Virus record (IMG/VR): IMGVR_UViG_3300011115_000308
Span: 1 to 56,450 of that record
Direction: 5' to 3' (one strand)
DNA: 56,450 nt
Source of the DNA: a virus
Taxonomy: Duplodnaviria; Caudoviricetes
Every line of letters starts with the position of its first letter. Within the stretch, counting starts at the first letter, position 1. Below are positions 1,898-41,346 of the stretch, piece by piece. The position numbers and the translations under genes are program-made. The notes beneath the pieces were generated by a model, which was not told where the DNA came from, did no database searches, and saw only the letters and a program-made list of their open reading frames with translations.

Positions 1898-3142
1898 TCA
1901 CGAAGGTGAGAAAGATGAAAGGCCAGCCATGTATTGCAAGGAAAAAGTTTCAACTTGATTTCCAAAATCTGTAGCATCACCTATGCTTTCTATTGTAATA
2001 TATTCAAATCCATTAAGACCTCCAAACACACCCCTAGTGCTGCTTGAAGCCCCCGCCCTCGATCCAGAAGTTAATAAATTTCCAAAAGTTGTTGCGCTTC
2101 CTGTGGTTGCAATAGTTATATAGTCCATGACAAGGCCAGAAGAAGAACCCCCTCCAAAAACACCCCGTGTACCATTGGAAACTCCTCCAACGCCGGAACG
2201 GCCAAGAGTTAAGTTTCCAAAAGTGGTAGCGTTGCCAGTGGTTGCAATAGTGATGTAGTCCATACGAGTGGAAAGATTACCGCCTCCAAAGACACCTCGT
2301 GTACTGCTAGAAACGCCAGCCACTCCATCTCGACTTGTCGTCAAGCTACCAAAACTTGCCGCATTTCCAGTTGTAGCAATAGTTATGTAGTCCATAACAG
2401 ACGATCTTGCTGTGGTATACCCCCCCCCAAAGACACCTCTTGTGCTACTAGATAAGCCCCCTAACTCTTTGCGGGCGACAGTTAAGTTTCCAAACGTAGT
2501 AGCGTTTCCAGTTGTTGTAAAAGTAATATAATCCATGACCGCAGAGACAGAACCAGTAGTGCCACCCCCAAAAACACCTCTTGTGCTACTTGAAACACCC
2601 GCTGCGTATCCCCTTGCGACAGTTAAGTTTCCAAAAGTGGACGCAAACGTTACCGTTGTCGAAATGATGATATACTGTATGAGGGTGGAATATGTTGCGG
2701 AATAACCGCCCCCGAATACGCCAAGACTTGAACTTAATGGCGTTGACCCTTGGGTGGTGCTAAACTTGTAAACGTTGGAGCCAGTTGAGCATACAGACAC
2801 AGCATACTGACTGGGGACATTGACTGCCGTACTACCACTGGTCGCGTTCTTAATGGTAATGGTAAATGCGCCGGAGGTAATGTTCCCGATCAACCACTGC
2901 CCGCCAACACCGCTTGGTATCTGGTAGATCAGGTTGGCCGAAAGGGTGCCCGTGAACAAAATGGCAAAGTTTTGGTAGTCAATAATAAGCAGCGTCTGCG
3001 TGGTGGTGATGCCCGTAACGTCGATTTCTAGGGAACTTCCAAAGGCTGTGTCGATGACAGAAAAGTTCGCATTCAGAGGGATGTCCCAACTGATCGTGCC
3101 TGCGGCAGGTTCGAACAAGCCCTTGTTCGTGGTGGTGACCAT
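1898..3142 (-). CDS. Putative receptor-binding/tail appendage protein with about six Kelch-like repeats, paralog 1
   Basis: Same architecture as 604-1869. TGATG overlap with the upstream gene. Confidence 0.75.
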   Translation of the reverse strand: MVTTTNKGLFEPAAGTISWDIPLNANFSVIDTAFGSSLEIDVTGITTTQTLLIIDYQNFAILFTGTLSANLIYQIPSGVGGQWLIGNITSGAFTITIKNATSGSTAVNVPSQYAVSVCSTGSNVYKFSTTQGSTPLSSSLGVFGGGYSATYSTLIQYIIISTTVTFASTFGNLTVARGYAAGVSSSTRGVFGGGTTGSVSAVMDYITFTTTGNATTFGNLTVARKELGGLSSSTRGVFGGGYTTARSSVMDYITIATTGNAASFGSLTTSRDGVAGVSSSTRGVFGGGNLSTRMDYITIATTGNATTFGNLTLGRSGVGGVSNGTRGVFGGGSSSGLVMDYITIATTGSATTFGNLLTSGSRAGASSSTRGVFGGLNGFEYITIESIGDATDFGNQVETFSLQYMAGLSSFSPS

Positions 3143-5193
3143 CAGATGCTCCTGTTAGCGACTTCCAGAGCGTGTGCGACAGCCTCGTCACTTTGCTTCA
3201 GCAGAGGCTCAGTTTCGGCGCTCCACCCCTTCTTAGCACGTTCTGCGGCCCGCACCAACTGGTCTGCATCCGCATCGTGCGGAGACACGCGGCCACCGGA
3301 CTTGCGGCCTTCACGTTGATCAGCAGTGGCAGCATACAGGGGCGCGGGGATCGGGTTGGTCATACGGGTTTCTGCAAGTTGCTTTGCCAGTTTCTGCCCC
3401 ATATCAGAAGCTAGGAAAGCCGCCCCTGCTTGGTTTGTTTTATTTTTAGCAAACCTTAAAACATTCGAACCAACCAGTGCGGCGGCGGCCAGTGCGGCGC
3501 TAGTTGAATTTAAACCTATTGGCGTACCTGTAAAAAAAGGATAAGAAAGCGCAGGAATTGCGCTTTGAACAATGTCAGACAATCCCAATCCTTGGTTGGC
3601 CCTCTCTGTTCGAACTACTTGATTTGGCGCGCCTAAATTTGCTTGACTGTCGTTAATTTTTCGCGCTGTGGCATTAAGTGTTTCTGTTGGGTCAAGGCCA
3701 AAAGGATCGGAAATTTTTTCCATTGTACGTGGGTCTATAATTCCATTGCTCCGCATTGCCCCCTCTGGTGAAGCTTCTGCGGCGGCCTTGGTTGCAAGGA
3801 AGTTTCTGTAATATCTGTTCAGTTCTTTAAACCCAGTTATTTTGCTGGCCTGACCAGTATTTTCCAAGCTTGTATAAAGGGCATCGTCCAAGACTTTTAC
3901 AAAATCCTGCGCGCTTTGTGCAGTTAATTTGCTTGTAGAGGTTCTTGATATTACGCCCATTTGCGTTCTCCAGTTGCGAAGGTCTTCAGCGGAAATTGTT
4001 TTTCCTGACGTTACCAAGCTTTCAAACTTGTTAGTTAGATCAGCAAACCCGCTCGGTATTATGTTTGATGAAACATCATTGTTGCGGCCCCAAGCTGAAA
4101 TAATTTCATCCATGTCATCAACATGTCTCGCCATGGGGGATACATCAACACCTTGGGAAAGTTTGTTGTATGCTTCCCCAAGTTTTTCACCATGTAGAGA
4201 TAGTGTGCCTCGTTGCGTAACTTTGTTTGTTGCGGGGTCTCTGATGTCTAACGTAAACCTGTTCAGACTAGGATCGCCTATGTCTGCCCCAATTGTTGCA
4301 TTGTAATCATCAGCAATTTTTTTAGGACTAAACTTCCCCATTCCAAGGTCCGTAGACCCTTCAATTGCACGAAGCTTTGGTAGATCATTGCTTGCGCTCA
4401 CGGGAATAGTGATGCCGCGCCCCTTCAAGTAAGCAAGCGAATCCGCACTCAAATTTGCCCCTGTGCTTGCAGATTTTCCTATTGCAGACCGAACAACGGC
4501 TTCAGGCATGGCGGCTAAAACACCAGCCCCCAAGCCGCCAAAAAAACGCGCCTTGTCTTCAAGTTCAGGGTAGTAACGATGGGCAATGTCTCCAGCGGTT
4601 TCACTCCCAACGGCTGGTGCAACCACATTTCGCAAGGCGCGCGATCCAATTTTTGCCGCAAGGCTTTTAGCTGGCCCCGCTGGAAACAACATGCCTGGGG
4701 CCATTTCGCCCGCAGTTTGTAAATAGTCTCCCAATTGCCCCTTTGGTTGGTAACCAAGAGTTTCAGGAAAATTGCGTTGCGCCGCGTCCATCACTGGCGT
4801 GTCGTAGCTTGGCATTAATGAACTCCAGTCTATCTTCCCTGTAGCTGGATCGCGGAATGGCTTATCAAAACGCATGGGCGGTGGGGTGTTGCCATTAGGC
4901 CCAGCGGCAACGTCGCTGATAGCCTTCAAAAGGTCAGCCGTTCCCGCAGCGCCAGCAAGCAATCCCTTCTGGCCGCTTTTGCCAAGGTCAGTCCAAGACT
5001 CGAACATTGGGCGTTGGTCACCAGCCAACTGCTGTTCTTTGTGGGTCGCTGCATCCTGATATTGCCGCCGTGTAGCATCTACAAACGCTTGGTTTGCTGG
5101 CGATCCCCCCGCAGGTGCAGGAGGGGGCTGGGACGGCCTGCCAGCGGTTTCCTTTAAGGAATCGTACAAAGCCCGTGTTTCTGCTTCAGTCAT
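3142..5193 (-). CDS. Putative internal virion/DNA ejection protein
   Basis: Start revised to ATG 5193, just past the upstream stop. Ala/Gly-rich helical protein with hydrophobic segments, following the large ejection gene. Ends RKSGGRV...VAHALEVA. Confidence 0.6.
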   Translation of the reverse strand: MTEAETRALYDSLKETAGRPSQPPPAPAGGSPANQAFVDATRRQYQDAATHKEQQLAGDQRPMFESWTDLGKSGQKGLLAGAAGTADLLKAISDVAAGPNGNTPPPMRFDKPFRDPATGKIDWSSLMPSYDTPVMDAAQRNFPETLGYQPKGQLGDYLQTAGEMAPGMLFPAGPAKSLAAKIGSRALRNVVAPAVGSETAGDIAHRYYPELEDKARFFGGLGAGVLAAMPEAVVRSAIGKSASTGANLSADSLAYLKGRGITIPVSASNDLPKLRAIEGSTDLGMGKFSPKKIADDYNATIGADIGDPSLNRFTLDIRDPATNKVTQRGTLSLHGEKLGEAYNKLSQGVDVSPMARHVDDMDEIISAWGRNNDVSSNIIPSGFADLTNKFESLVTSGKTISAEDLRNWRTQMGVISRTSTSKLTAQSAQDFVKVLDDALYTSLENTGQASKITGFKELNRYYRNFLATKAAAEASPEGAMRSNGIIDPRTMEKISDPFGLDPTETLNATARKINDSQANLGAPNQVVRTERANQGLGLSDIVQSAIPALSYPFFTGTPIGLNSTSAALAAAALVGSNVLRFAKNKTNQAGAAFLASDMGQKLAKQLAETRMTNPIPAPLYAATADQREGRKSGGRVSPHDADADQLVRAAERAKKGWSAETEPLLKQSDEAVAHALEVANRSI

Positions 5194-5194
5194 T

Positions 5195-8100
5195 TCAAAT
5201 ACCCCTTGCAAGACGAGCGGCGGCTTCCGCTCGGTCTCGTTCGTAAAACTTCCAGAACAGTTGCCGTTGTTCATTTGTTACACTTGGGGCATCGTATTGC
5301 GTAATGGTTACTGTTGGCGGCGGGTCACCCATAAAGTGCGGAACTTCGGCGTTAGCTTTTGACAAAAGTTCCTGATAACGCTGATTGCGGTTACTAGAGA
5401 ACTCATCCTGGTATGCCTTAATGTCGGTTTCTTGGTTTGGGTGGTCTTTAGCCCACTCATCAAACCCATTGTAGTATTCCATTAGGTATGCGTTATTTGC
5501 CTTCATCTTAACCATTATATCTCGCATAGCGGCTGGAGGCATATCGGGGGATGGCGTGAAAGAACCCGCAAACTCAATAGATGTTGCAGGCGCTCCACCT
5601 GGTAGAGCTTCTAGATTACTCTTTTGTAGCAAGGCGCTTTCTTTATCAGCAGAAACATAAGCATCTGGGTTTGACATAAACGTTGGCAAGTTGTTTGTAT
5701 CTATTCCTAGTGCTTGCGCCCATGCCCCCATGATAGCGCCGGACCTAGCTTCTGGGCCTGGCTTCATTCCCAGCATAACTTGAGACATATTATCAAGCGT
5801 GTTGTTCATGGAATTTGTAGCCGCTTGAGAATTGATAGAATCGTTTTTAAATTTCTCACGTTGACCTTGCATCATTTCTGTAGATGCAACTTGGTTTTGC
5901 GCGTTGATAGCTGCTGGAACCTCAACCTTGTTTCCGTTTACATCAGTTGTTGAGCCACTTTCCATGATTTGATCACGAGCCTTAATTGCTTGCTGAACAA
6001 CTTGAGACATTGGGTTTTCTGGATCAGATTGAGCGCCAACATTTTTGTTGATCAAATCGTTAAGAGACTGCAAGTCCTGCATAAACGGTATCTGATAATC
6101 CACGCCTTTTATGTTGCGCGTTACAACACTTCTCGTGTCGGCCACGGTGATAGGCTTAATCGGCGGCTGACCCATCAGGGTTGGCACTCCACGCAGTGCA
6201 GTCAGGTCAATGCCTTGCTGTGCGGCATACTCCGGCCACGACATGTCTGTCATGCCATTGTAGACTGCATACGAGTAGTTTTTCATCGCGTTCTGGGCGT
6301 TTGCAAGGTTCGTAGCCTCAACATCCGCAGTCTGCTTCAGAAGACCCTTATAGGTGTCACTGCCAACGGCGGCACCTTGCAGAAGTGCTGTTAGGGGTGA
6401 CATGCTATCGGAAGAAACCATTCCACCTATGCCTGACAGCAAGGACATAATGGCATTCCGGTCAAGTTTCCCAGTGTCTTTCTCATGGAAGAACTTCCCG
6501 ATTAAGTTGCGATCTTCGTATGGCTTATTGATATGCAGCGGATCGTTACCTTGCTGTGACATGTCTGCGCGGGCCAAGCCGTCACTGGGTGGCATACGCG
6601 CGTCACCAAGACCACCAGTTTTACCCTCAGACGCAGCCCAAGGCTGCATTCCCCGCGTATCATACAAGTGCTTGGCAATGCTTTCTTGAAGATCAGCCGT
6701 CATTTTCTCATCGCCAGTAAGACCCATTGCATTCTTGGCATCTGCTAAAGTTCCGCCAACTATTTGATATAATCCCATGGGGGTAGCAACTCGACCGTCT
6801 TCTGTTTGGGTTTTGCTGTAGTTTGCATATGGGCCGCCTACACGAGCAAATTCAATTGCCTGATCAACCGTCATGTCAGTAATATTTGTGCCCGCAAAAG
6901 CACCGCCTTCACGATTGGCAAAGCCCAAAAGCGCATTCGGATCATTTCCGCTTTCGCGGGGAATAATCTTGGCCTTCGCCGCATCCCAGTCTGTAGGGAT
7001 ATGAACAGGCTTAACGCCACCTAATCCATCAGATGGCGCTGGTTCAACTTGGATAGTCCGCATCGTATCGGCAGCAACATCAGCGGCACCTAATCCTTCA
7101 GGACGGGGCGGTGGCGGGCGCATTGATGTGGTCGGCTCAGCAACATCAGCAGCACCCAATCCTTCAGGGCGGGGCGGAGGTGGGCGCATTGATGTGATCG
7201 GCGCGGCATCCGAAGTGGGGGCAACGCCTGTCGTGGGAGACGGGGGGTAGGGGTGAGCTTGATATGGCACACCAAAACTCTTTCCCGCGCCGAAACCCAT
7301 ATTGGCGGGATTTGTAGAATGCTGCATAAGACGATCTGTTAAAATGTCTTGATACCCTGAATTAGGGAAGCCTCGCTCTTTAAGGCCTTTGCGTAACTCA
7401 ATGGTATTTCTGTTTTCCCCTTGGTATTTTTGATTGGCAATAAAGGCAGGTGATTGTTCATAACCTTCAACTAACAGATGTTTAGGACCATATGGCGCTT
7501 GGTGGCCAGCAAGACCCATGTTGGCGGGGTTAGTTCGAGAACTCATCAGATAATCTTTGTTAAGATCGTCAATGATCTCCGTTCCAGCCGCAAACTGCTT
7601 CCGAAGCTCTTGCTCACGGCGGAGTTCTTCTGTTGTCAGCGCAGGGTAAGAAACCCCACCATCCAGCGCATACCCATGGCGATCATCAACAGCACCACCG
7701 CCTGCCTTGCCACCAAACATGGCTGCAATCTTGAGGGCGTCAGAAATAAAGTTGCCGCCCTTCTTTTGCGCTTGCTCGGCTTCTTCACCCGTCAGAAGAG
7801 GGCTGGCCGAGAAAATCCGCTCTGGGATGTAACTTTCCTCATACAGGGGCAATTGGCTCATGGTCATGGGGCCAGCAATGCCACCGCCCTTTGCATACCC
7901 ATTGACCCGCCCGCCCGTCTTGACCGGATTTCCAAAGATGTTGGTCGGGCGCGTTGTAGCGGTCGTGGAGCCGTAAAGCGGGCCAATCGTTGCATATTGG
8001 TTGGCCAAGAACTGAGCCGTCTGGAAGTCATAACCTTGCTCTTGCATGAACCGATTGATCATGGCGTCAACGCCAGCCTGTTGGTTTTGCTGTTGCACAG

Positions 8101-10020: not shown

Positions 10021-10040
10021 ATATATTTAATCCTTTGCCA

Positions 10041-10069
10041 TTGCAGTCTCATTTCAAAACTGGTAGGAT
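10041..10069 (+). promoter_or_regulatory. Sigma70-like promoter for the HNH gene (probably leaderless)
   Basis: TTGCAG-17 bp-TAGGAT with extended TGn. ATG 10077 begins 8 nt after the -10 with no SD. Confidence 0.55.
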
Positions 10070-10076
10070 GTCCTTC

Positions 10077-10562
10077 ATGGAACACTCATACCTCACATAT
10101 AACCTATCTTACGATCCAAATACAGGGGTCTTTACTTGGGCGCAACCGCGCCCAAAAGTGAACGTTGGGGATGTAGCTGGAGGCGTCCACAAAAGTTCTG
10201 GATATGTTACGATTGAAGTAAATGGAAAATCATATGCAGCACATAGGCTGGCATGGTTTTATATGACAGGATCAATGCCAGTTGATCAAATTGATCACAT
10301 AAACAGGATAAAGACAGACAACCGTTTTTTAAATCTTAGAGAGGCAAACAATGGGCAAAATAGGGCTAATACTAGGTCTTCAGGCAAGTATGGCTTGAAA
10401 GGTGTTGCATATAAAAAATGGCTTAAGGAAAAACCTTGGGAAGCAAGAATTACTTTTGAAAAAAAAGTAAGGTCTTTAGGTTGCTTTGCGACAAAGGAAG
10501 AAGCCCATGAGGCGTACTGCAAAGAAGCAAGACGCCTACATGGTGAGTTTTTTAACGCTTAA
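10077..10562 (+). CDS. HNH homing endonuclease with C-terminal AP2-like domain
   Basis: YDPNTG, AHRLAW, IDHINRIKTDNRFLNLR, then KGV...WEARI...LGCFATKEEAHEAY. Lower GC, opposite strand to the operon. Confidence 0.9.
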   Translation: MEHSYLTYNLSYDPNTGVFTWAQPRPKVNVGDVAGGVHKSSGYVTIEVNGKSYAAHRLAWFYMTGSMPVDQIDHINRIKTDNRFLNLREANNGQNRANTRSSGKYGLKGVAYKKWLKEKPWEARITFEKKVRSLGCFATKEEAHEAYCKEARRLHGEFFNA

Positions 10563-11740
10563 TCGCGCTTCGGACCAGGCAACCCTTGCAAGGTCTTGAT
10601 GGTTTTCTGGCGCATCTTTTTCACAAACGAATCCAAGATTTTGTGCCCGTTATCAAGATCGCCATTGCCGATGCGTAGCACATCATGCGGGGGGATTACA
10701 TACTCACCGCCAGCGGCCACAATTGGTATGCCCTCAGTAGCGCCGCCAGCGGCTTTACCAAGAATATTGTCAGTAAGTCGGTTATATTTACTGCTACCTT
10801 TATCGTCCTTCTGGAAAAATTCGCCTGCTTCCGCACCCGCGAATGGACCAAAGGGCGTTAAAGCGCCAAAACCCGCGCCAACCCATTTAGCGTTTCTGTT
10901 TAGCCAAGTGCCTTTTTTTTGATTTGTAGGATTTGTGGTTACGCCCGAATATGGGTGGGCAGAAGACCCGTCCTTGCCGCCATAGGGTCTGACGCCAAGG
11001 CTGTTCAGCATGCCGGAAAATGGGCCGCCCTCAAACTTGCTGCCGGATTGCCCCATGCCACCGCCGTCAATCATGTCACCAAAGTTCTTATAGCCCGCGC
11101 CCTTGCCGCCACCATTGATCATGTCCCACAGGCCCGTGTAGTGGTCGGCTTGTGCTGGTGCCAAGTCAGCCGGACGGGCTTGGGGGCGCTGTGAATAGCC
11201 ACCGTTGTTGCCTTTTGTTTGGCGGTCGCTTGAATAGTTGGATGCGGGCTGGGGACGTGCAGGTGCTGCCGCCACAGTTTCCTTAGCGGTTTTTGACGCA
11301 GACATAGAACCGCTGCCAGACTTCAGGGATGCGCCCAACTTGTTCTTGGTAGTGTCCCCACCATCGTAATACCCAAGGCGACCACCTGCCGTCTTATGCG
11401 GCATCCCCGCCATATCATCGGGCATCCCTTTGGCGTCACCACCGCCACCGCCACTGAAGATAGACTTGGCAACCTTGAAGCCAGCCATGCTGTTGCCTTC
11501 GCCAAGCGCCGAGATGATGTCGGCAGGGATGACGTAAGAGCCAGAGGCAACGTGCATTGGCAGGTGGTCGGTACGACCAGCCACGGAAGAGTGGATCGGC
11601 CCATCGTGAACCTTACCACCGTGCGCCCGTGCGGTGCGGATGGCCGCAGCGATAGCTTGTTTTTGGGGATGGCCCGCGCGTACCATCTCAGAGATGTTAC
11701 CGGAAATCGTACTTTGGGATGAACCCTTCTTGAGCGGCAT
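10559..11740 (-). CDS. Virion-associated protein with MPLKKG N-terminal module and duplicated xGG...G(S/E)YVIP domain
   Basis: Start revised to ATG 11740 (GAAGGA upstream). Internal duplication HVASGSYVIPADII / VAAGGEYVIPPHDV. Confidence 0.6.
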   Translation of the reverse strand: MPLKKGSSQSTISGNISEMVRAGHPQKQAIAAAIRTARAHGGKVHDGPIHSSVAGRTDHLPMHVASGSYVIPADIISALGEGNSMAGFKVAKSIFSGGGGGDAKGMPDDMAGMPHKTAGGRLGYYDGGDTTKNKLGASLKSGSGSMSASKTAKETVAAAPARPQPASNYSSDRQTKGNNGGYSQRPQARPADLAPAQADHYTGLWDMINGGGKGAGYKNFGDMIDGGGMGQSGSKFEGGPFSGMLNSLGVRPYGGKDGSSAHPYSGVTTNPTNQKKGTWLNRNAKWVGAGFGALTPFGPFAGAEAGEFFQKDDKGSSKYNRLTDNILGKAAGGATEGIPIVAAGGEYVIPPHDVLRIGNGDLDNGHKILDSFVKKMRQKTIKTLQGLPGPKRD

Positions 11741-11744
11741 GTTG

Positions 11745-12092
11745 TTATCCTTCCGAGTACGATACGACAACGGTCATTCCGGTGCCGGGAACCACTACCA
11801 GTCCGTTGTCATATGGCATATTTATCACTGTAACACCAATAACGTTGTCAATCACAACCATGGCGCTGGTGAGCGAAGCAGAGGCGTTGCTATCATAGAC
11901 CGTGCCGTCCGTTGATCCAGCGACAATAACGCTGACAGACGCCAGTCGGCCCTGACCCGAAGACACCAAGGTTGTAGCTATCAACGTGTCAGACCTGCTG
12001 TTTCCCTGAACCTTCAGGTAAATTTGGGCAGCACTGTTGATCGCAACTGCGATGTTTTTGGCGGCTGTAAGAATGTCTGAGAGCGATGACAT
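11745..12092 (-). CDS. Small virion structural protein
   Basis: Coupled to the tail hub gene. Beta-rich C-terminus (GLVVVPGTGMTVVVSY). Confidence 0.55.
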   Translation of the reverse strand: MSSLSDILTAAKNIAVAINSAAQIYLKVQGNSRSDTLIATTLVSSGQGRLASVSVIVAGSTDGTVYDSNASASLTSAMVVIDNVIGVTVINMPYDNGLVVVPGTGMTVVVSYSEG

Positions 12093-18958: not shown

Positions 18959-19210
18959 TCAACACTTCCATGCTCTCAAGGACAGCGCCTTGCGGGTGGG
19001 TTTTCCGCTTTCATCTTTTGCAGGACCGAGCATTCCGCTCATCCTGGCACAAAATGATTTCTTACGGGCAGCGTCTTTGTCGTTCTTTGGGTTTGGGGCG
19101 GGGGGCTTCAGGTTGTGGCCTTCCGCCTTGGCCGATGCGCGGCCAACAGCATTTAAGCCGCCCTTTGGGTCTTGCCCGGCTTTACGGGTCCACGCTGGGG
19201 TCTTCGCCAT
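18959..19210 (-). CDS. Small basic conserved phage protein (DUF6321-like)
   Basis: AWTRKAG.DPKGGLN...RKKSFCARM...W.C pattern recalled from aquatic phages. Confidence 0.6.
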   Translation of the reverse strand: MAKTPAWTRKAGQDPKGGLNAVGRASAKAEGHNLKPPAPNPKNDKDAARKKSFCARMSGMLGPAKDESGKPTRKALSLRAWKC

Positions 19211-23946: not shown

Positions 23947-24336
23947 TCAGTACACGGAATCGGGGTCTTGGACCCGACCCTTGATGTAAATGTCGTCAAA
24001 GATACGGCACAGGACGTTATTCACGGTGATTGACCACCCTTCGGACGGGCGAAAGATCAGCCAATCATGTTCTTTGAACTCCATGCTTTCAAACCATGTG
24101 CCGTCTTGTTCAAACGCCTTGGGGCCGCGCTTGACCAGAAGACCTACCTTTGATTGGTACTTGTCTTCGTCAACGTGGCTATCCGTCAGGATCAAGCCGC
24201 TTTTTGTTTTAGTTGGGCGTAAATAAGTGGCTAAAAGCACTTGATTGTGGAACAGTTCTATATTAGAAATGTCTCCAAGTGCATCTAGGATGGTTTGTTT
24301 TGGGTCTTGTTCGTGCAACATGGGCATATGCGGCAT
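23947..24336 (-). CDS. groES: Phage co-chaperonin GroES (Cpn10-like)
   Basis: Mobile loop KTKSGLILT, VGLLVKRGP.AF and terminal DD..I.G.V. Start revised to ATG 24336. Confidence 0.8.
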   Translation of the reverse strand: MPHMPMLHEQDPKQTILDALGDISNIELFHNQVLLATYLRPTKTKSGLILTDSHVDEDKYQSKVGLLVKRGPKAFEQDGTWFESMEFKEHDWLIFRPSEGWSITVNNVLCRIFDDIYIKGRVQDPDSVY

Positions 24337-24346
24337 GGTTAATCCT

Positions 24347-24553
24347 TCAGAGGGTTTTGTTGACGACTGTCTGTGCATCGTCGCACAGTTCGATGACCAT
24401 ATCCAACGCGGCGATCCTACCGACCGCCTCGCGGTATTGTTCTATGGTCGTGATTGAATGCCCCCCAACAATGTTGGTGGCAATGTGATGTCGTTCTTCG
24501 CTTATCAGCCTACGAAGCTCGCGTTCGAAAACGCTGCTTGCCGTCTGGATCAT
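24347..24553 (-). CDS. Small helical hypothetical protein
   Basis: EQYREAVGRIAALD amphipathic helix. Upstream of groES. Confidence 0.55.
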   Translation of the reverse strand: MIQTASSVFERELRRLISEERHHIATNIVGGHSITTIEQYREAVGRIAALDMVIELCDDAQTVVNKTL

Positions 24554-29226: not shown

Positions 29227-31176
29227 TCACTTCCCCTTGGATTTCAACGCCACCGTAGCACCTTTGCCGTCCTTGGTGAAGCGGCGTGTTAGGGCAAGGG
29301 CGTTGTCAACCGAACCACCTTTGCGTTTAACCAGACGCGGCTTGCCGGAAATGTGCTGGTATTTGTCAGGATTGCCCAGCAAAAGTTCAACTGGGTACGG
29401 TCTTGTGTAGGCGGGCTGACCAACTGGTTCCATGTCAACTACAGGGTAATGATCCTGATAGACAAGCTTTGGCGGTTCCTTGCTGCCCCAACCGCTGACG
29501 TGCAACATGCGGTGGCCGACCACTTCCATCGGCGTGGAATTTGGCGTTGGCAAATAGCGATATTTGTCTCCAAACGGCAGGGCGTCAAATACGCCATCGG
29601 CCTTGGCAGCCATATAAGCTTGACGGGACGCTTCGTGGCGGTCGGACATTTTGGTGAGCGTGTCTTGGACATGCTGTGGCGGCGCGTCCGACATTGCTGC
29701 ATTCATTGTACGACGAAAGCCTAGATTGACCACGTTGTCGCCCACTTCGCCACCTTCTTGTTTGCTAACCATGCCACCATACTCGTACTTGTCCGTTACC
29801 TGCACGGGGTCGTGGTGGAACATGACGTAGTTGTGCGTGGGGTCGCCGTCAGTGTCGTTGCGCGATCCAGCATCAAGGTAGCGGATGCCCTTTAGACCTT
29901 GGGACTGAAGATAATCAGAAGCTTGCTTGCCGTTTTCGCCATAATTAGAAAGAGCTTGATGAAGATCACGACCAGTAGCTTCCACGCCAACGTCACGACC
30001 TTCACGCCACGCTTGCAAGACGCCACGGGTGGGGCCAATAGCTTTGTTGATGTCAGCTTCTCTGGCGATGCGCTGAATGTTTGGATGTTGCTCCGATAGC
30101 GGCTTGTCCCAGTCCAGCAGTTCTTCGGGTTTAACGTTCAGCTTAACTTTGTACATGTGGCCGCCTGGGCGGAAATCACCGCTGGAAAACTTTTTGGATA
30201 CCGCCTCAACTAATTCTGGCGTCATATTTGGGCTTGTGTGGGTTGCGCCGTTCTTAAACTTACTGAGCCACTTGACAGCACCTTCCGGCGTATTGTCGCT
30301 GAATACCAGTGCCATTTGACCTGCGCGCTTCTCCAAATCAGGGGTGCCTTCTGGATGAATAAGCGTGTCAGACAACGAATTTCGGTAGCCTTTTGCCACC
30401 GCCTCATTCCCAGCAAAATACAGCCCATGCCCATAGGATTGGTTGCCCTCGCCCGTGCCAAGCTTGCTGATGTCAAACTGGTCAAAATCATGCGGGCTGC
30501 CGTGGTAGGCGGTGATGCCATCCTCGTCATCATTGTCAACCGTACCACCACCAGCCTTGGTGATGTCGGGGTCGCTGGATGCCATAGCCGAAACTTTGTC
30601 TGGATGCATGGGGCCATCGGCTTCTTCTGCACCATTCCAATAGCGAACTTCCGCCTTCACGCTTGGAACGCCCATTGCGTGGGCAACAGCCACCCGTGTG
30701 TTGCCCTCAAGGATGAAAGGCTTGCCGCGATGGTTTACCGCCACCACAACCTTATTGCCCTTCTGGTGGGGATCAAAACCCTCTTTGCTGACCGACGACA
30801 TCAGATCGTCAAACCGTGGCTCGCCCGCAACCCTTTTTTCATTGTTAAGCGGTTCAATGGATTTCAAGACGTGGGTCGGCAGGAACAGGTCTGATTTTCC
30901 ACCCATCCACCCCGTTATCGCCCCAGCAATCCCCTTCATTCGGGGGTACTCAAATGCGTGACTTTGCTTGCTTTCAAGCCAATCCCCGCCAGGGTTGTCC
31001 TTTACAAAATCAACCTTGCCACCATCAGCATGGACCTGACGGGGGACGTTGGGCAGGTATTTGGACGGGGCGATCTGGCCACCAGCGCGGTTCACAGCAG
31101 TGCGGGCGCGGGCTTTGTCAAGCATACCAGCCGCTGTCAGCTTGGCTGACCGGATCGCCTTGTCCTTGTCCATCAC
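29227..31176 (-). CDS. Polyvalent putative head cargo protein: ParB/Srx-like, ADP-ribosyltransferase-like and unknown domains
   Basis: FILEGNTRVAVAHAMG (ParB-N like). AYHGSPHDF...GHGLYFA...YKVKL...NYVMF (ART fold of polyvalent proteins). Confidence 0.65.
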   Translation of the reverse strand: MMDKDKAIRSAKLTAAGMLDKARARTAVNRAGGQIAPSKYLPNVPRQVHADGGKVDFVKDNPGGDWLESKQSHAFEYPRMKGIAGAITGWMGGKSDLFLPTHVLKSIEPLNNEKRVAGEPRFDDLMSSVSKEGFDPHQKGNKVVVAVNHRGKPFILEGNTRVAVAHAMGVPSVKAEVRYWNGAEEADGPMHPDKVSAMASSDPDITKAGGGTVDNDDEDGITAYHGSPHDFDQFDISKLGTGEGNQSYGHGLYFAGNEAVAKGYRNSLSDTLIHPEGTPDLEKRAGQMALVFSDNTPEGAVKWLSKFKNGATHTSPNMTPELVEAVSKKFSSGDFRPGGHMYKVKLNVKPEELLDWDKPLSEQHPNIQRIAREADINKAIGPTRGVLQAWREGRDVGVEATGRDLHQALSNYGENGKQASDYLQSQGLKGIRYLDAGSRNDTDGDPTHNYVMFHHDPVQVTDKYEYGGMVSKQEGGEVGDNVVNLGFRRTMNAAMSDAPPQHVQDTLTKMSDRHEASRQAYMAAKADGVFDALPFGDKYRYLPTPNSTPMEVVGHRMLHVSGWGSKEPPKLVYQDHYPVVDMEPVGQPAYTRPYPVELLLGNPDKYQHISGKPRLVKRKGGSVDNALALTRRFTKDGKGATVALKSKGK

Positions 31177-40240: not shown

Positions 40241-40861
40241 TCAAACCTCCCCGACCATATCGCCGCCGCAATCGCCGCAGATCAGGCGCGACCCCATCTT
40301 AGCCCACGCCTTATTGCCGCAGCCACACTCATGCTTGACCTTCGACAGGTCTTTTTTCTTGCCATCGGCCTTGCCACGGGGCTGGGTGAAGTAGGGGATG
40401 TCGAAATTTGGCCCAAGACCCTCGAAAGCCACATCAAACGGCCCGCCTTCGTCGATTATGTGCGTAACCTTGCGGCCCGTCATCTTGCCTGTGCCATCGG
40501 TCGGGGTCAGGCCTACGCGCAGCATCAGGTTGGCCCATTCCATGTTGTGGTGGCCACCCTTGGACGGCTTGCCGTACTCTTGCTGTTCGACGTGGGTCAT
40601 CTCGTGAACCAGCGTGGACAGCACGGCTTGGATGGTGCGGTCCATGCTCTGCGGGTTCAGGGCAACCTCGTGAACCGTGCCCAGATCGGCATCTTTATTT
40701 GCAAACTGGTCGGCCCAGAAATAGCCGTGGGCACCACGCTTGCGGGTCAGGGTGAACAGCACGGGCGGCAGGCGGCTGTCGAACAGGGCCTTGTTGAAGT
40801 GATCATAGGCGCGCTCAAGGCCCGTGTACGTCTCGGCGGTGGGGGTCTGATAATTGGTCAT
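40241..40861 (-). CDS. SprT-like zinc metalloprotease
   Basis: FNKALF...LP, TLVHEMTH, HNMEW...VG and C-terminal CxC...CxxC. Confidence 0.85.
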   Translation of the reverse strand: MTNYQTPTAETYTGLERAYDHFNKALFDSRLPPVLFTLTRKRGAHGYFWADQFANKDADLGTVHEVALNPQSMDRTIQAVLSTLVHEMTHVEQQEYGKPSKGGHHNMEWANLMLRVGLTPTDGTGKMTGRKVTHIIDEGGPFDVAFEGLGPNFDIPYFTQPRGKADGKKKDLSKVKHECGCGNKAWAKMGSRLICGDCGGDMVGEV

Positions 40862-41092: not shown

Positions 41093-41314
41093 TCAGTCGC
41101 ACAGGCTCTCGTAGCGGTACTCGGCCAAGCCCTCGGCGTACTCTTGCAGGGCCTCGTTCCAGCCGTGGTCATGCCAGTGCTTGTAAGCCTCTTCGTACTC
41201 TTCCTCAGTGGGTTCGTCGCCGTCCTTGTCCCACTCAATGTCGCCATATTCCGGCTCTGCGTAGAAGCCGTAGTCGCCGTAGGTGAAGTGGAAGCAGCGG
41301 TGTAGGTTGTTCAT
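41093..41314 (-). CDS. Highly acidic hypothetical early protein
   Basis: Preceded by a promoter and CCAACCACGGAG. E/D/Y-rich. Confidence 0.65.
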   Translation of the reverse strand: MNNLHRCFHFTYGDYGFYAEPEYGDIEWDKDGDEPTEEEYEEAYKHWHDHGWNEALQEYAEGLAEYRYESLCD

Positions 41315-41346
41315 TTTCGTCTCCGTGGTTGGTGTGTCGATGACCC

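Follow-up and report, generated by a model that had tools for sequence, protein, structure and literature searches.

Which role does a duplicated module that resembles the end of a siphophage tape measure protein (TMP) play in a phage where no TMP can be recognised? The question is raised by gene P0001 of the IMG/VR virus record IMGVR_UViG_3300011115_000308 (Duplodnaviria; Caudoviricetes), which was analysed here as a whole (the window, 56,450 bases, with an estimated completeness of 95%). The initial annotation had described this phage as devoid of a TMP and of a recognisable prohead protease, and neither was found among the 66 open reading frames (ORFs) scanned, nor was any tail tube or sheath gene. 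It had further proposed that the P0001 domain reads or cuts xGG sites in trans. The reading that we favour, with moderate confidence, is that P0001 is a virion-loaded, ejected podophage protein with a TMP-like tail for docking and delivery, here without cargo, and not an enzyme acting on xGG.

The start and the layout of P0001 were read from alignments of 30 mid-length and 40 short relatives. The start is the ATG at 11740, as all aligned relatives open with MPLK, and the TTG upstream at 11770 is unused. One plan is common to both sets of relatives, which open with a helical hairpin and RAxGG, continue with module 1, a spacer that varies, KAxGG and module 2, and close with a basic helix whose last residues are LPGPK(K/R)D. 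The spacer slot holds a median of ~31 residues in the relatives, or else a GNAT+NUDIX, a DUF6098+NUDIX or a GP88-like insert. The hairpin of P0001, two helices in the AlphaFold2 (AF2) model, corresponds to phrog_2423 (function unassigned), which matches residues 1-40 on profile positions 1-40 of 52 (E-value = 3.5e-11) and is the sole PHROGs match of the protein; in BFVD the hairpin matches phage proteins of 43-70 aa. No Pfam family was matched even at E<=10 with the whole protein and with both halves, NCBIfam gave none either, and PDB sequence searches with P0001 and with family alignments A2 and A3 returned chance rows only (E>=0.28).

The internal duplication claimed in the initial annotation is real. 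BLASTP of the N-terminal against the C-terminal part gave 28.5 bits (E-value = 5e-6), with 15 of 52 residues identical in a gap-free alignment of residues 43-94 with 321-372, and both strings that had been quoted are present, at residues 39-72 and 329-350. Two copies are retained in every aligned relative (30 rows, 40 rows and 64 distinct module pairs). When the 36-codon core of module 1 was compared with 80 IMG/VR loci, a mean of 16.4 codons were identical, 16.4 differed synonymously only and 3.2 changed the residue, which is the pattern of old, strong purifying selection and not of recent spread. AF2 folds each module into a beta-hairpin followed by two helices, a short one and then a longer one. 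The short form was modelled with a mean predicted local distance difference test score (pLDDT) of 69.1 and a predicted template modelling score (pTM) of 0.51, and a module-only construct with 72.4 and a pTM of 0.64, its modules reaching 83-89; the AxGG segments beside the modules are disordered in both models (pLDDT<50). The double module is described by no Pfam or NCBIfam model, and structure searches added no known fold: Foldseek against the PDB gave nothing at E<=0.001 for the full short form, while for the module-only model, itself of moderate confidence, the best Z was 3.0, none of 48,161 chains reached Z>=5 and Foldseek again had no match at E<=0.001. A structure search of BFVD with the short form returned uncharacterised phage proteins only. 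VIA structure matches of the short form covered the N-terminal hairpin only (Z<=5.9) and were dismissed as generic. The best ESM Atlas score was 0.85, and rows for DUF2213, DUF6321 and NUDIX fell below the bar and serve as leads only. The DUF6321 cluster, a weak structural neighbour of the P0001 N-terminus under that bar, has a counterpart in the window, where a small, basic DUF6321 protein (E-value = 1.2e-24) is encoded at 18959-19210 (-) between adaptor and capsid genes. A three-copy complex prediction of the short form scored 0.00 against a mark of 0.42 and, being made without controls, is evidence neither way.

Concerning the relation to TMPs, profile A3 was built from the modules of this family only (42 rows) and A4 from nine aligned TMP modules. 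Comparison of A3 with A4 by hhalign gave Prob 86.5% (P = 4.6e-6, 33 columns). A search of whole phage records with A3 returned a single candidate in the 96.5 kb of siphophage DLP5, its TMP (26.2 bits, ~90 residues from the C-terminal end), and the profile also matched a 294-aa protein of Pag-Yong1 (44.5 bits; L003:8302-9186) and the two tandem modules that end a 639-aa protein of MW202545 (34.2 and 25.6 bits; L004:7282-9201). It had no match in lambda, T7, Douge, TM4, VW-6B and R26L, blanks that carry little weight. Pag-Yong1 and MW202545 are podophage-type, and in both the module closes an otherwise unrelated protein, one of them Cys-rich with 639 aa, that is encoded downstream of a nozzle or needle gene. 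The module of DLP5 was also detected in 753 phage records, with a tape measure annotation on 48 of the 60 rows listed. Of the nine TMPs examined, six have it 70-140 residues from the C-terminal end, and those of TimTam, Douge and TM4 have it in mid-protein. In TMPs it stands between two [FY/KR]AxGG motifs, and it has no counterpart among Pfam or NCBIfam models. Judging from these profile comparisons, homology of the P0001 modules to this widespread TMP module is probable.

Siphophage TMPs (of DLP5, VW-6B, Gordonia and Mycobacterium phages) share with P0001 a C-terminal region with a hairpin-plus-helix module of ~50 residues (G-x-[ST]-D-x-[IV]-P ... G-E-[YF]-V ... G-x-G), which in both is flanked by [FY/KR]AxGG and placed shortly before a C-terminal helix, and both are encoded among genes for proteins expelled ahead of the DNA. 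Unlike these TMPs, P0001 has a duplicated module, no coiled-coil ruler, no TMP Pfam domain and no tail tube or chaperone genes. It matches no TMP family model (Pfam TMP_2, PhageMin_Tail, TMP_3 and Tape_meas_lam_C; TMP PHROGs), and with a Gly-rich spacer of varying length and no long helical ruler amid tail genes it lies outside the definition of a whole TMP. The likeness to TMP ends reported in the initial annotation thus stands at module level, on the hhalign result and the DLP5 match, and is weak for lambda gpH, where at only ~4 bits it is at motif level only. Specifically, BLASTP of P0001 against gpH gave an E-value of 0.25, with only GE[YF]V-x7-RIGxGxL at equal spacing, and the best gpH match of A3 and A4, residues 750-777, scored only 4.3 and 3.8 bits (local hidden Markov model (HMM) search). 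The module-like segment of gpH, residues 733-782, appears as a divergent case whose likeness to P0001 is not significant alone, and PF09718 covers a different region (627-701). TMP C-termini dock as trimers in the tail tip and seal it, according to passages of PMC10721106, PMC10038345 and PMC13033339, and the first of these describes gpH 818-849 as resolved on gpI. The mt3 motif of TM4 was also considered and rejected as a different element, ~100 residues downstream of the module. A bridge through phrog_11341, matched by P0122, the DLP5 TMP and P0243, was given little weight, as no single stretch of P0122 passed and P0001 had no match; a search of the window with this profile also gave no match. 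A phrog_6090 match at 41093-41317, with an internal TAG and unrelated to the place of P0001, was taken as chance.

The double module is far from confined to this phage. An exhaustive profile search, with clusters at 50% identity, yielded 3391 clusters at E<=0.001, 1507 at E<=1e-10 and 98 at E<=1e-30, and more than 600 IMG/VR stretches were matched. Representatives of 145 of the best 150 clusters were analysed; among those left out is P0353 (7221 aa), which was listed with six stretches, re-scored only ~9 bits and is probably a low-complexity artefact. In all 145 representatives the last module ends 12-23 residues (median 21) before the C-terminus. The sequence before the first module spans at least 150 residues in 78 and at most 60, like in P0001, in 25, the gap between the modules has a median of 31 residues and reaches at least 100 in 16, and an MPL-type N-terminal hairpin opens 63. 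Pfam domains were detected in 11 of the 35 long representatives scanned (ART-PolyVal in six; SLT, InPase+CHAP, Phage_lysozyme, GNAT and NUDIX+DUF6098 in one each), with no TMP domain in any of the 35, and in none of 16 mid-length relatives. These cargo enzymes lie either ahead of module 1 or in the gap between the modules, as in P0247, which has GNAT and NUDIX in that gap; P0248 has an insert of ~530 residues there. Since the double module of the relatives ends effector-type enzymes, and P0001 has a Gly-rich spacer only, P0001 is the cargo-free form of this constant terminal element.

Variable effectors on a constant virion-associated part are also found among MuF-anchored effectors and among T4 internal proteins with a capsid targeting sequence. 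Polyvalent proteins likewise fuse variable effectors (ART-PolyVal, NUDIX, GNAT, InPase) to such a part, and processing between their domains has been proposed, as passages of PMC5512222 describe. Unlike those proteins, the constant part of this family is a C-terminal double module outside Pfam and NCBIfam, and the same passages hold no mention of glycine motifs, linkers or tape measures. Polyvalent proteins are defined by at least two effector or enzymatic domains; P0001 has none that we found, and some relatives, such as P0247, do carry them. Within the window, the 649-aa head-module protein (Table 1) contains an ART-PolyVal-like domain scoring 24.9 bits, below the Pfam cut-off of 31.2. Residues 221-476 of this protein share 40% identity (E-value = 2e-43) with the N-terminus of P0326, a protein closed by the double module.

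The xGG motif does recur in internal proteins of this phage, as had been claimed initially. The pattern [AKRS]xGGx[VILT] occurs seven times in the 741-aa protein (0.78 expected; 0/300 shuffles reach 7), five times in the 649-aa protein (0.44 expected; 0/300 reach 5) and twice in P0001 (0.55 expected; 33/300 reach 2). In the 145 representatives, with AAGGE of the hairpin excluded, AxGG was counted 437 times against 85.8 expected, a 5-fold enrichment. It is preceded by R in 109 cases and by K in 96 (205 together, against a K+R background of 11.6%); M (45), Y (44) and F (36) come next in frequency at this preceding position. In 11 annotated proteins, 10 occurrences fell in the 2677 residues inside domains or modules versus 45 in the 5861 outside, and in P0247 and P0311 the motif marks every boundary between annotated domains or modules. 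AxGG is a real junction signal, and by analogy with phage T5 it is a plausible processing site. The T5 TMP, pb2, is cut after R1127, as mapped by mass spectrometry (reported in a passage of PMC10038345), and this cut falls at FVPR|AEGGMM. The 1219 residues of pb2 hold only two xAxGG, and the one at the cut is of the same motif class as RAHGG and KAAGG of P0001; RAEGG itself was found in P0279 and P0360. However, the module was found in pb2 by neither profile, and the T5 cleavage is a measured one, whereas that of this family would follow by analogy only. Passages of the same source report the pb2 fragment starting at AEGG as muralytic and cite a 1973 paper whose title speaks of host involvement in T5 tail-protein cleavage. 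Lambda gpH is cut as well, in a Gly-rich region, with site and catalyst called unknown in a passage of PMC12617516. The initial statement that the C-terminal part of gpH is removed does not agree with passages of PMC12617516 and PMC10721106, according to which the fragment stays in the virion. A literature search for further mapped TMP cleavage sites returned nothing useful. AxGG-type motifs were also seen in T7 gp7.3, a small virion protein (L095:36-335) with QVAGGLAGLAGG, ARAGGKK and SSGGGINI and no module.

Synteny places P0001 within a conserved block. The order adaptor, nozzle-like, 115-aa, P0001, GNAT-like and 1442-aa protein was found at 23/23 related IMG/VR loci of at least 14 kb and in MW202675, the 115-aa gene being detectable at 16 of the 23. 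In all of these P0001 lies between the nozzle and the internal protein, which is the position of podophage ejection proteins. Ejection and internal virion proteins of podophages (T7 gp14-16, P22 gp7/20/16, SU10 gp20-24) are, like P0001, encoded downstream of the nozzle and beside a giant transglycosylase-bearing protein, although no likeness in sequence or fold between them and P0001 was found. In P22-type phages, needle and ejection genes occupy the same place after the nozzle. Concerning SU10, needle and ejection genes follow the nozzle gene in the account of PMC9509320, and podophages lack a TMP counterpart according to a passage of the 2025 A4 paper (PMC12002296). The markers recognised with Pfam and PHROGs in the window are an SU10-type portal, two SU10-adaptor-like proteins, an HK97-type capsid protein, a terminase and an amidase. 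No description of a TMP-like module in podophage ejection proteins was found in literature searches, nor was a cultured close relative with proteomics, and a literature search on Pag-Yong1/MinM2 proteomics gave nothing useful.

Under the reading favoured here, the delivery tail would consist of the two hairpin-plus-helices modules and the basic C-terminal helix ending in LPGPK(K/R)D, and it is probably a distant homologue of the module found a short way ahead of the C-terminus with which siphophage TMPs dock at the hub. During assembly, this tail would dock P0001 in the portal-nozzle channel or on the internal core, as the TMP C-terminus does in the tail tip, and P0001 would exit with the first wave of ejected proteins. 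In the relatives the same tail would carry ART, NUDIX, GNAT, pyrophosphatase/CHAP, lysozyme or transglycosylase for delivery, and the copy of the window would hold a Gly-rich spacer of ~230 residues in place of cargo. The [RK/MYF]AxGG motifs may act as flexible hinges between these units and would probably be cut by a further protease, by analogy with T5 pb2.

Several points weigh against this proposal. The analysis shows the duplication, the homology, the synteny, the architecture and the motif enrichment, whereas virion presence, docking, ejection and cleavage are inferred. The TMP link consists of 33 aligned columns and one direct TMP match, A3 having found one of six TMP-bearing records. 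Applied to P0001 in a local HMM search with a database size of one, A4 scores only 5.2 bits (residues 46-74) and 3.8 bits (333-358), compared with 19.1 bits on the short homologue P0122 in the same kind of search; a genome search with A4 gave no match in the window, T5, HK97, lambda or T7, blanks that are again weak. The AF2 confidence is moderate (mean pLDDT 69 and 72), and the GRTD loop falls below 50 in the first model. Finally, the near-invariance of module 1 (H50, S51, R56, T57, D58, H59, H63, S66, S68) is not obviously explained by docking alone, and an active or metal site would also fit these residues.

An unlikely alternative is that P0001 is purely structural and closes the nozzle channel as a plug or needle-like gatekeeper, being shed at infection and delivering nothing. 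It would suit a gene directly after the nozzle, which is the needle place in SU10 and P22, as well as the role of TMP C-termini as seals and the lack of cargo in the copy of the window; however, relatives with the same hairpin and modules carry enzymes, which a plug does not need, the spacer ranges from ~31 to more than 330 residues, and for the needle the 115-aa neighbour is just as good a candidate.

It is quite improbable, but worth stating, that [RK/FY]|AxGG is a general processing signal of proteins loaded into the tail channel or head of phages for later injection and that the double module performs or recruits the cleavage, in cis or in trans. Such a signal would cover both siphophage TMPs (T5 pb2; lambda gpH to gpH*, cut in the Gly-rich stretch that adjoins FATGG) and the polyvalent effectors of podophages, and in this phage the 649-aa and 741-aa proteins would be cleaved in trans. 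If so, a new small protease or protease adaptor would be seen in P0001 for the first time as a stand-alone protein, and what catalyses the cleavage of gpH, called unknown in the passage of PMC12617516, would be found.

The original proposal, in which the double module recognises or cuts xGG sites of other virion proteins in trans, is to be regarded as very unlikely. The near-invariant His, Ser, Thr and Asp of module 1, held under very strong purifying selection, speak for it, and so does the enrichment of the motif in the module-less 741-aa and 649-aa proteins, the latter with an ART domain that is fused to the module in P0326. No prohead protease or other protease was recognised in the structural block, R|AEGG is a true cleavage site in T5 pb2, and a strictly C-terminal place is also reported for assemblin-like peptidases of polyvalent proteins (in a passage of PMC5512222). 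Nevertheless, no peptidase was matched in Pfam, NCBIfam, the annotated PHROGs or PDB sequences, and the structure searches of the module-only model described above gave no peptidase fold either. No set of catalytic residues is common to the copies: only Gly and Val columns are invariant between module 1 and module 2, the polar residues common to module 1, module 2 and the TMP modules come down to an [ST]-[DE] pair that is often missing from module 2, and neither module 2 nor the modules of MW202545, Pag-Yong1 and the TMPs have the conserved His residues of module 1. The motif, moreover, lies in cis, in the unstructured segments beside the modules, and the TMPs of T5, lambda and DLP5 carry AxGG in phages where a stand-alone module gene was not found. 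Gly-Gly metallopeptidases of the LAS/M23 type are defined by HxxxD and HxH zinc motifs in a domain of ~120 residues. Module 1 has H-x7-D-H-x3-H within ~50 residues, and no Peptidase_M23 match was obtained. Another candidate for a processing protease exists in the genome, a SprT-like zincin protein at 40241-40861 (-) (PF10263, E-value = 4.5e-7), the only peptidase-like domain recognised besides cell-wall hydrolases. The idea of a protease in trans stays alive because of the invariance of module 1, the lack of another protease in the structural block and the ART link between the 649-aa protein and P0326.

Autoprocessing in cis, by which each module would cut its own flanking AxGG and free cargo or an end fragment, as gpH gives gpH* plus gpHC, deserves little credence. 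In this family, as in TMPs, AxGG does adjoin the module on one or both sides, module 1 and the TMP modules share a G-x-[ST]-[DE] pair, T5 is cut at R|AEGG, and gpH is cut in its Gly-rich region just upstream of the module-like segment (as described in a passage of PMC12617516). On the other hand, junctions far from the modules, such as FAAGG between GNAT and NUDIX in P0247, are beyond reach in cis, the [ST]-D pair is missing from the lambda segment, neither profile finds the module at the T5 site, structure searches of the module-only model returned no known autoproteolytic fold, and the 1973 title mentioned above points to the host. Finally, it is highly doubtful that the ejected hairpin modules act on the envelope by binding peptidoglycan or membrane and anchoring a translocation channel, since, although the TMP module adjoins wall-degrading inserts (in TM4 the module spans residues 700-750 and mt3 is centred on W853), some relatives have SLT, lysozyme or CHAP domains and the T5 pb2 fragment from AEGG is reportedly muralytic, no likeness to LysM, SH3, PG_binding or other wall-binding families was found with Pfam and many cargos (ART, NUDIX, GNAT) are cytoplasmic enzymes.

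With the terminal double module and its fixed end, a phage element of very wide occurrence is defined, for which Pfam and NCBIfam have no entry and our searches found no annotation. It joins siphophage TMP ends, the ejection-gene block of short-tailed phages and injected polyvalent effector enzymes, which are usually treated apart. If the tail is a loading and ejection signal, it would name the cargo of thousands of uncultured phages and give a means of loading phage particles with foreign proteins in laboratory strains. Apart from that, the one TMP cut that mass spectrometry has mapped, that of T5, falls exactly on [RK]AxGG, and the motif provides a testable candidate for the cut of lambda gpH.

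Table 1. Features of P0001, its neighbours and the two head-module proteins in the window (residue numbers refer to P0001).
Feature	Position	Strand	Remarks
P0001, whole gene	10559..11740	-	393 aa plus stop; ATG 11740, stop 10559-10561
N-terminal helical hairpin, residues 1-38 (MPLKKGSS...AAAIRTAR)	11627..11740	-	phrog_2423 and AF2
RAHGG junction motif, residues 38-42	11615..11629	-	A39, G41, G42 invariant among aligned relatives
Module 1, residues 43-94	11459..11614	-	beta-hairpin, short helix, helix; near-invariant core GPIHSSVAGRTDHLPMHVASGSYVIPADIISALGEGNSMAGFK
Variable Gly/Ser/Pro-rich spacer, residues 95-328	10757..11458	-	includes KTAGG at 11381-11395
KAAGG junction motif, residues 329-333	10742..10756	-	A330, G332, G333 invariant in alignment
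Module 2, residues 321-372	10625..10780	-	hairpin IPIVAAGGEYVIPP; residues 330-362 align with TMP module (hhalign)
C-terminal end, residues 373-393	10562..10624	-	basic helix and LPGPKRD, nearly invariant among aligned relatives
115-aa protein	11745-12092	-	tightly packed between nozzle-like gene and P0001; same operon
Nozzle-like protein, 761 aa	12092-14377	-	same operon as P0001, tightly packed; phrog_3287, E-value = 1.5e-53; MW202675 homologue annotated 'phage stabilization protein'
GNAT-like protein, 163 aa	9529-10020	-	downstream of P0001
Internal-virion-protein-like protein, 1442 aa	5195-9523	-	phrog_1249, E-value = 5.4e-4; MW202675 homologue annotated 'internal virion protein D'
Head-module protein, 649 aa, ART-PolyVal-like	29227-31176	-	adjoins portal gene; module absent
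Head-module protein, 741 aa	24634-26859	-	long Gln/Gly/Met/Pro-rich low-complexity middle; module absent; no known family matched

Regarding the remaining genes of the region, the 1442-aa protein opens with MCFKKKKK and carries long Gly/Gln/Met repeat arrays, and the next ORF, 3142-5274 (-), overlaps its gene by 80 bases as listed, its start being uncertain. The GNAT-like neighbour of P0001 and the GNAT domain inside P0247 have no pairwise similarity (E-value = 0.75), and no gene fission is claimed. A GroES-like gene (Cpn10, E-value = 3.5e-6) lies within the head-assembly block at 23947-24378 (-). Next to P0001, an HNH endonuclease gene at 10035-10562 (+) (PF13392, E-value = 2.2e-11; phrog_99, E-value = 5e-59) is convergent with it, and the two overlap by 4 bases at the stop of P0001. 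That this HNH gene is present at the same spot in only one of the 23 related loci (L009, 81% identity) makes it look like an inserted mobile homing endonuclease.

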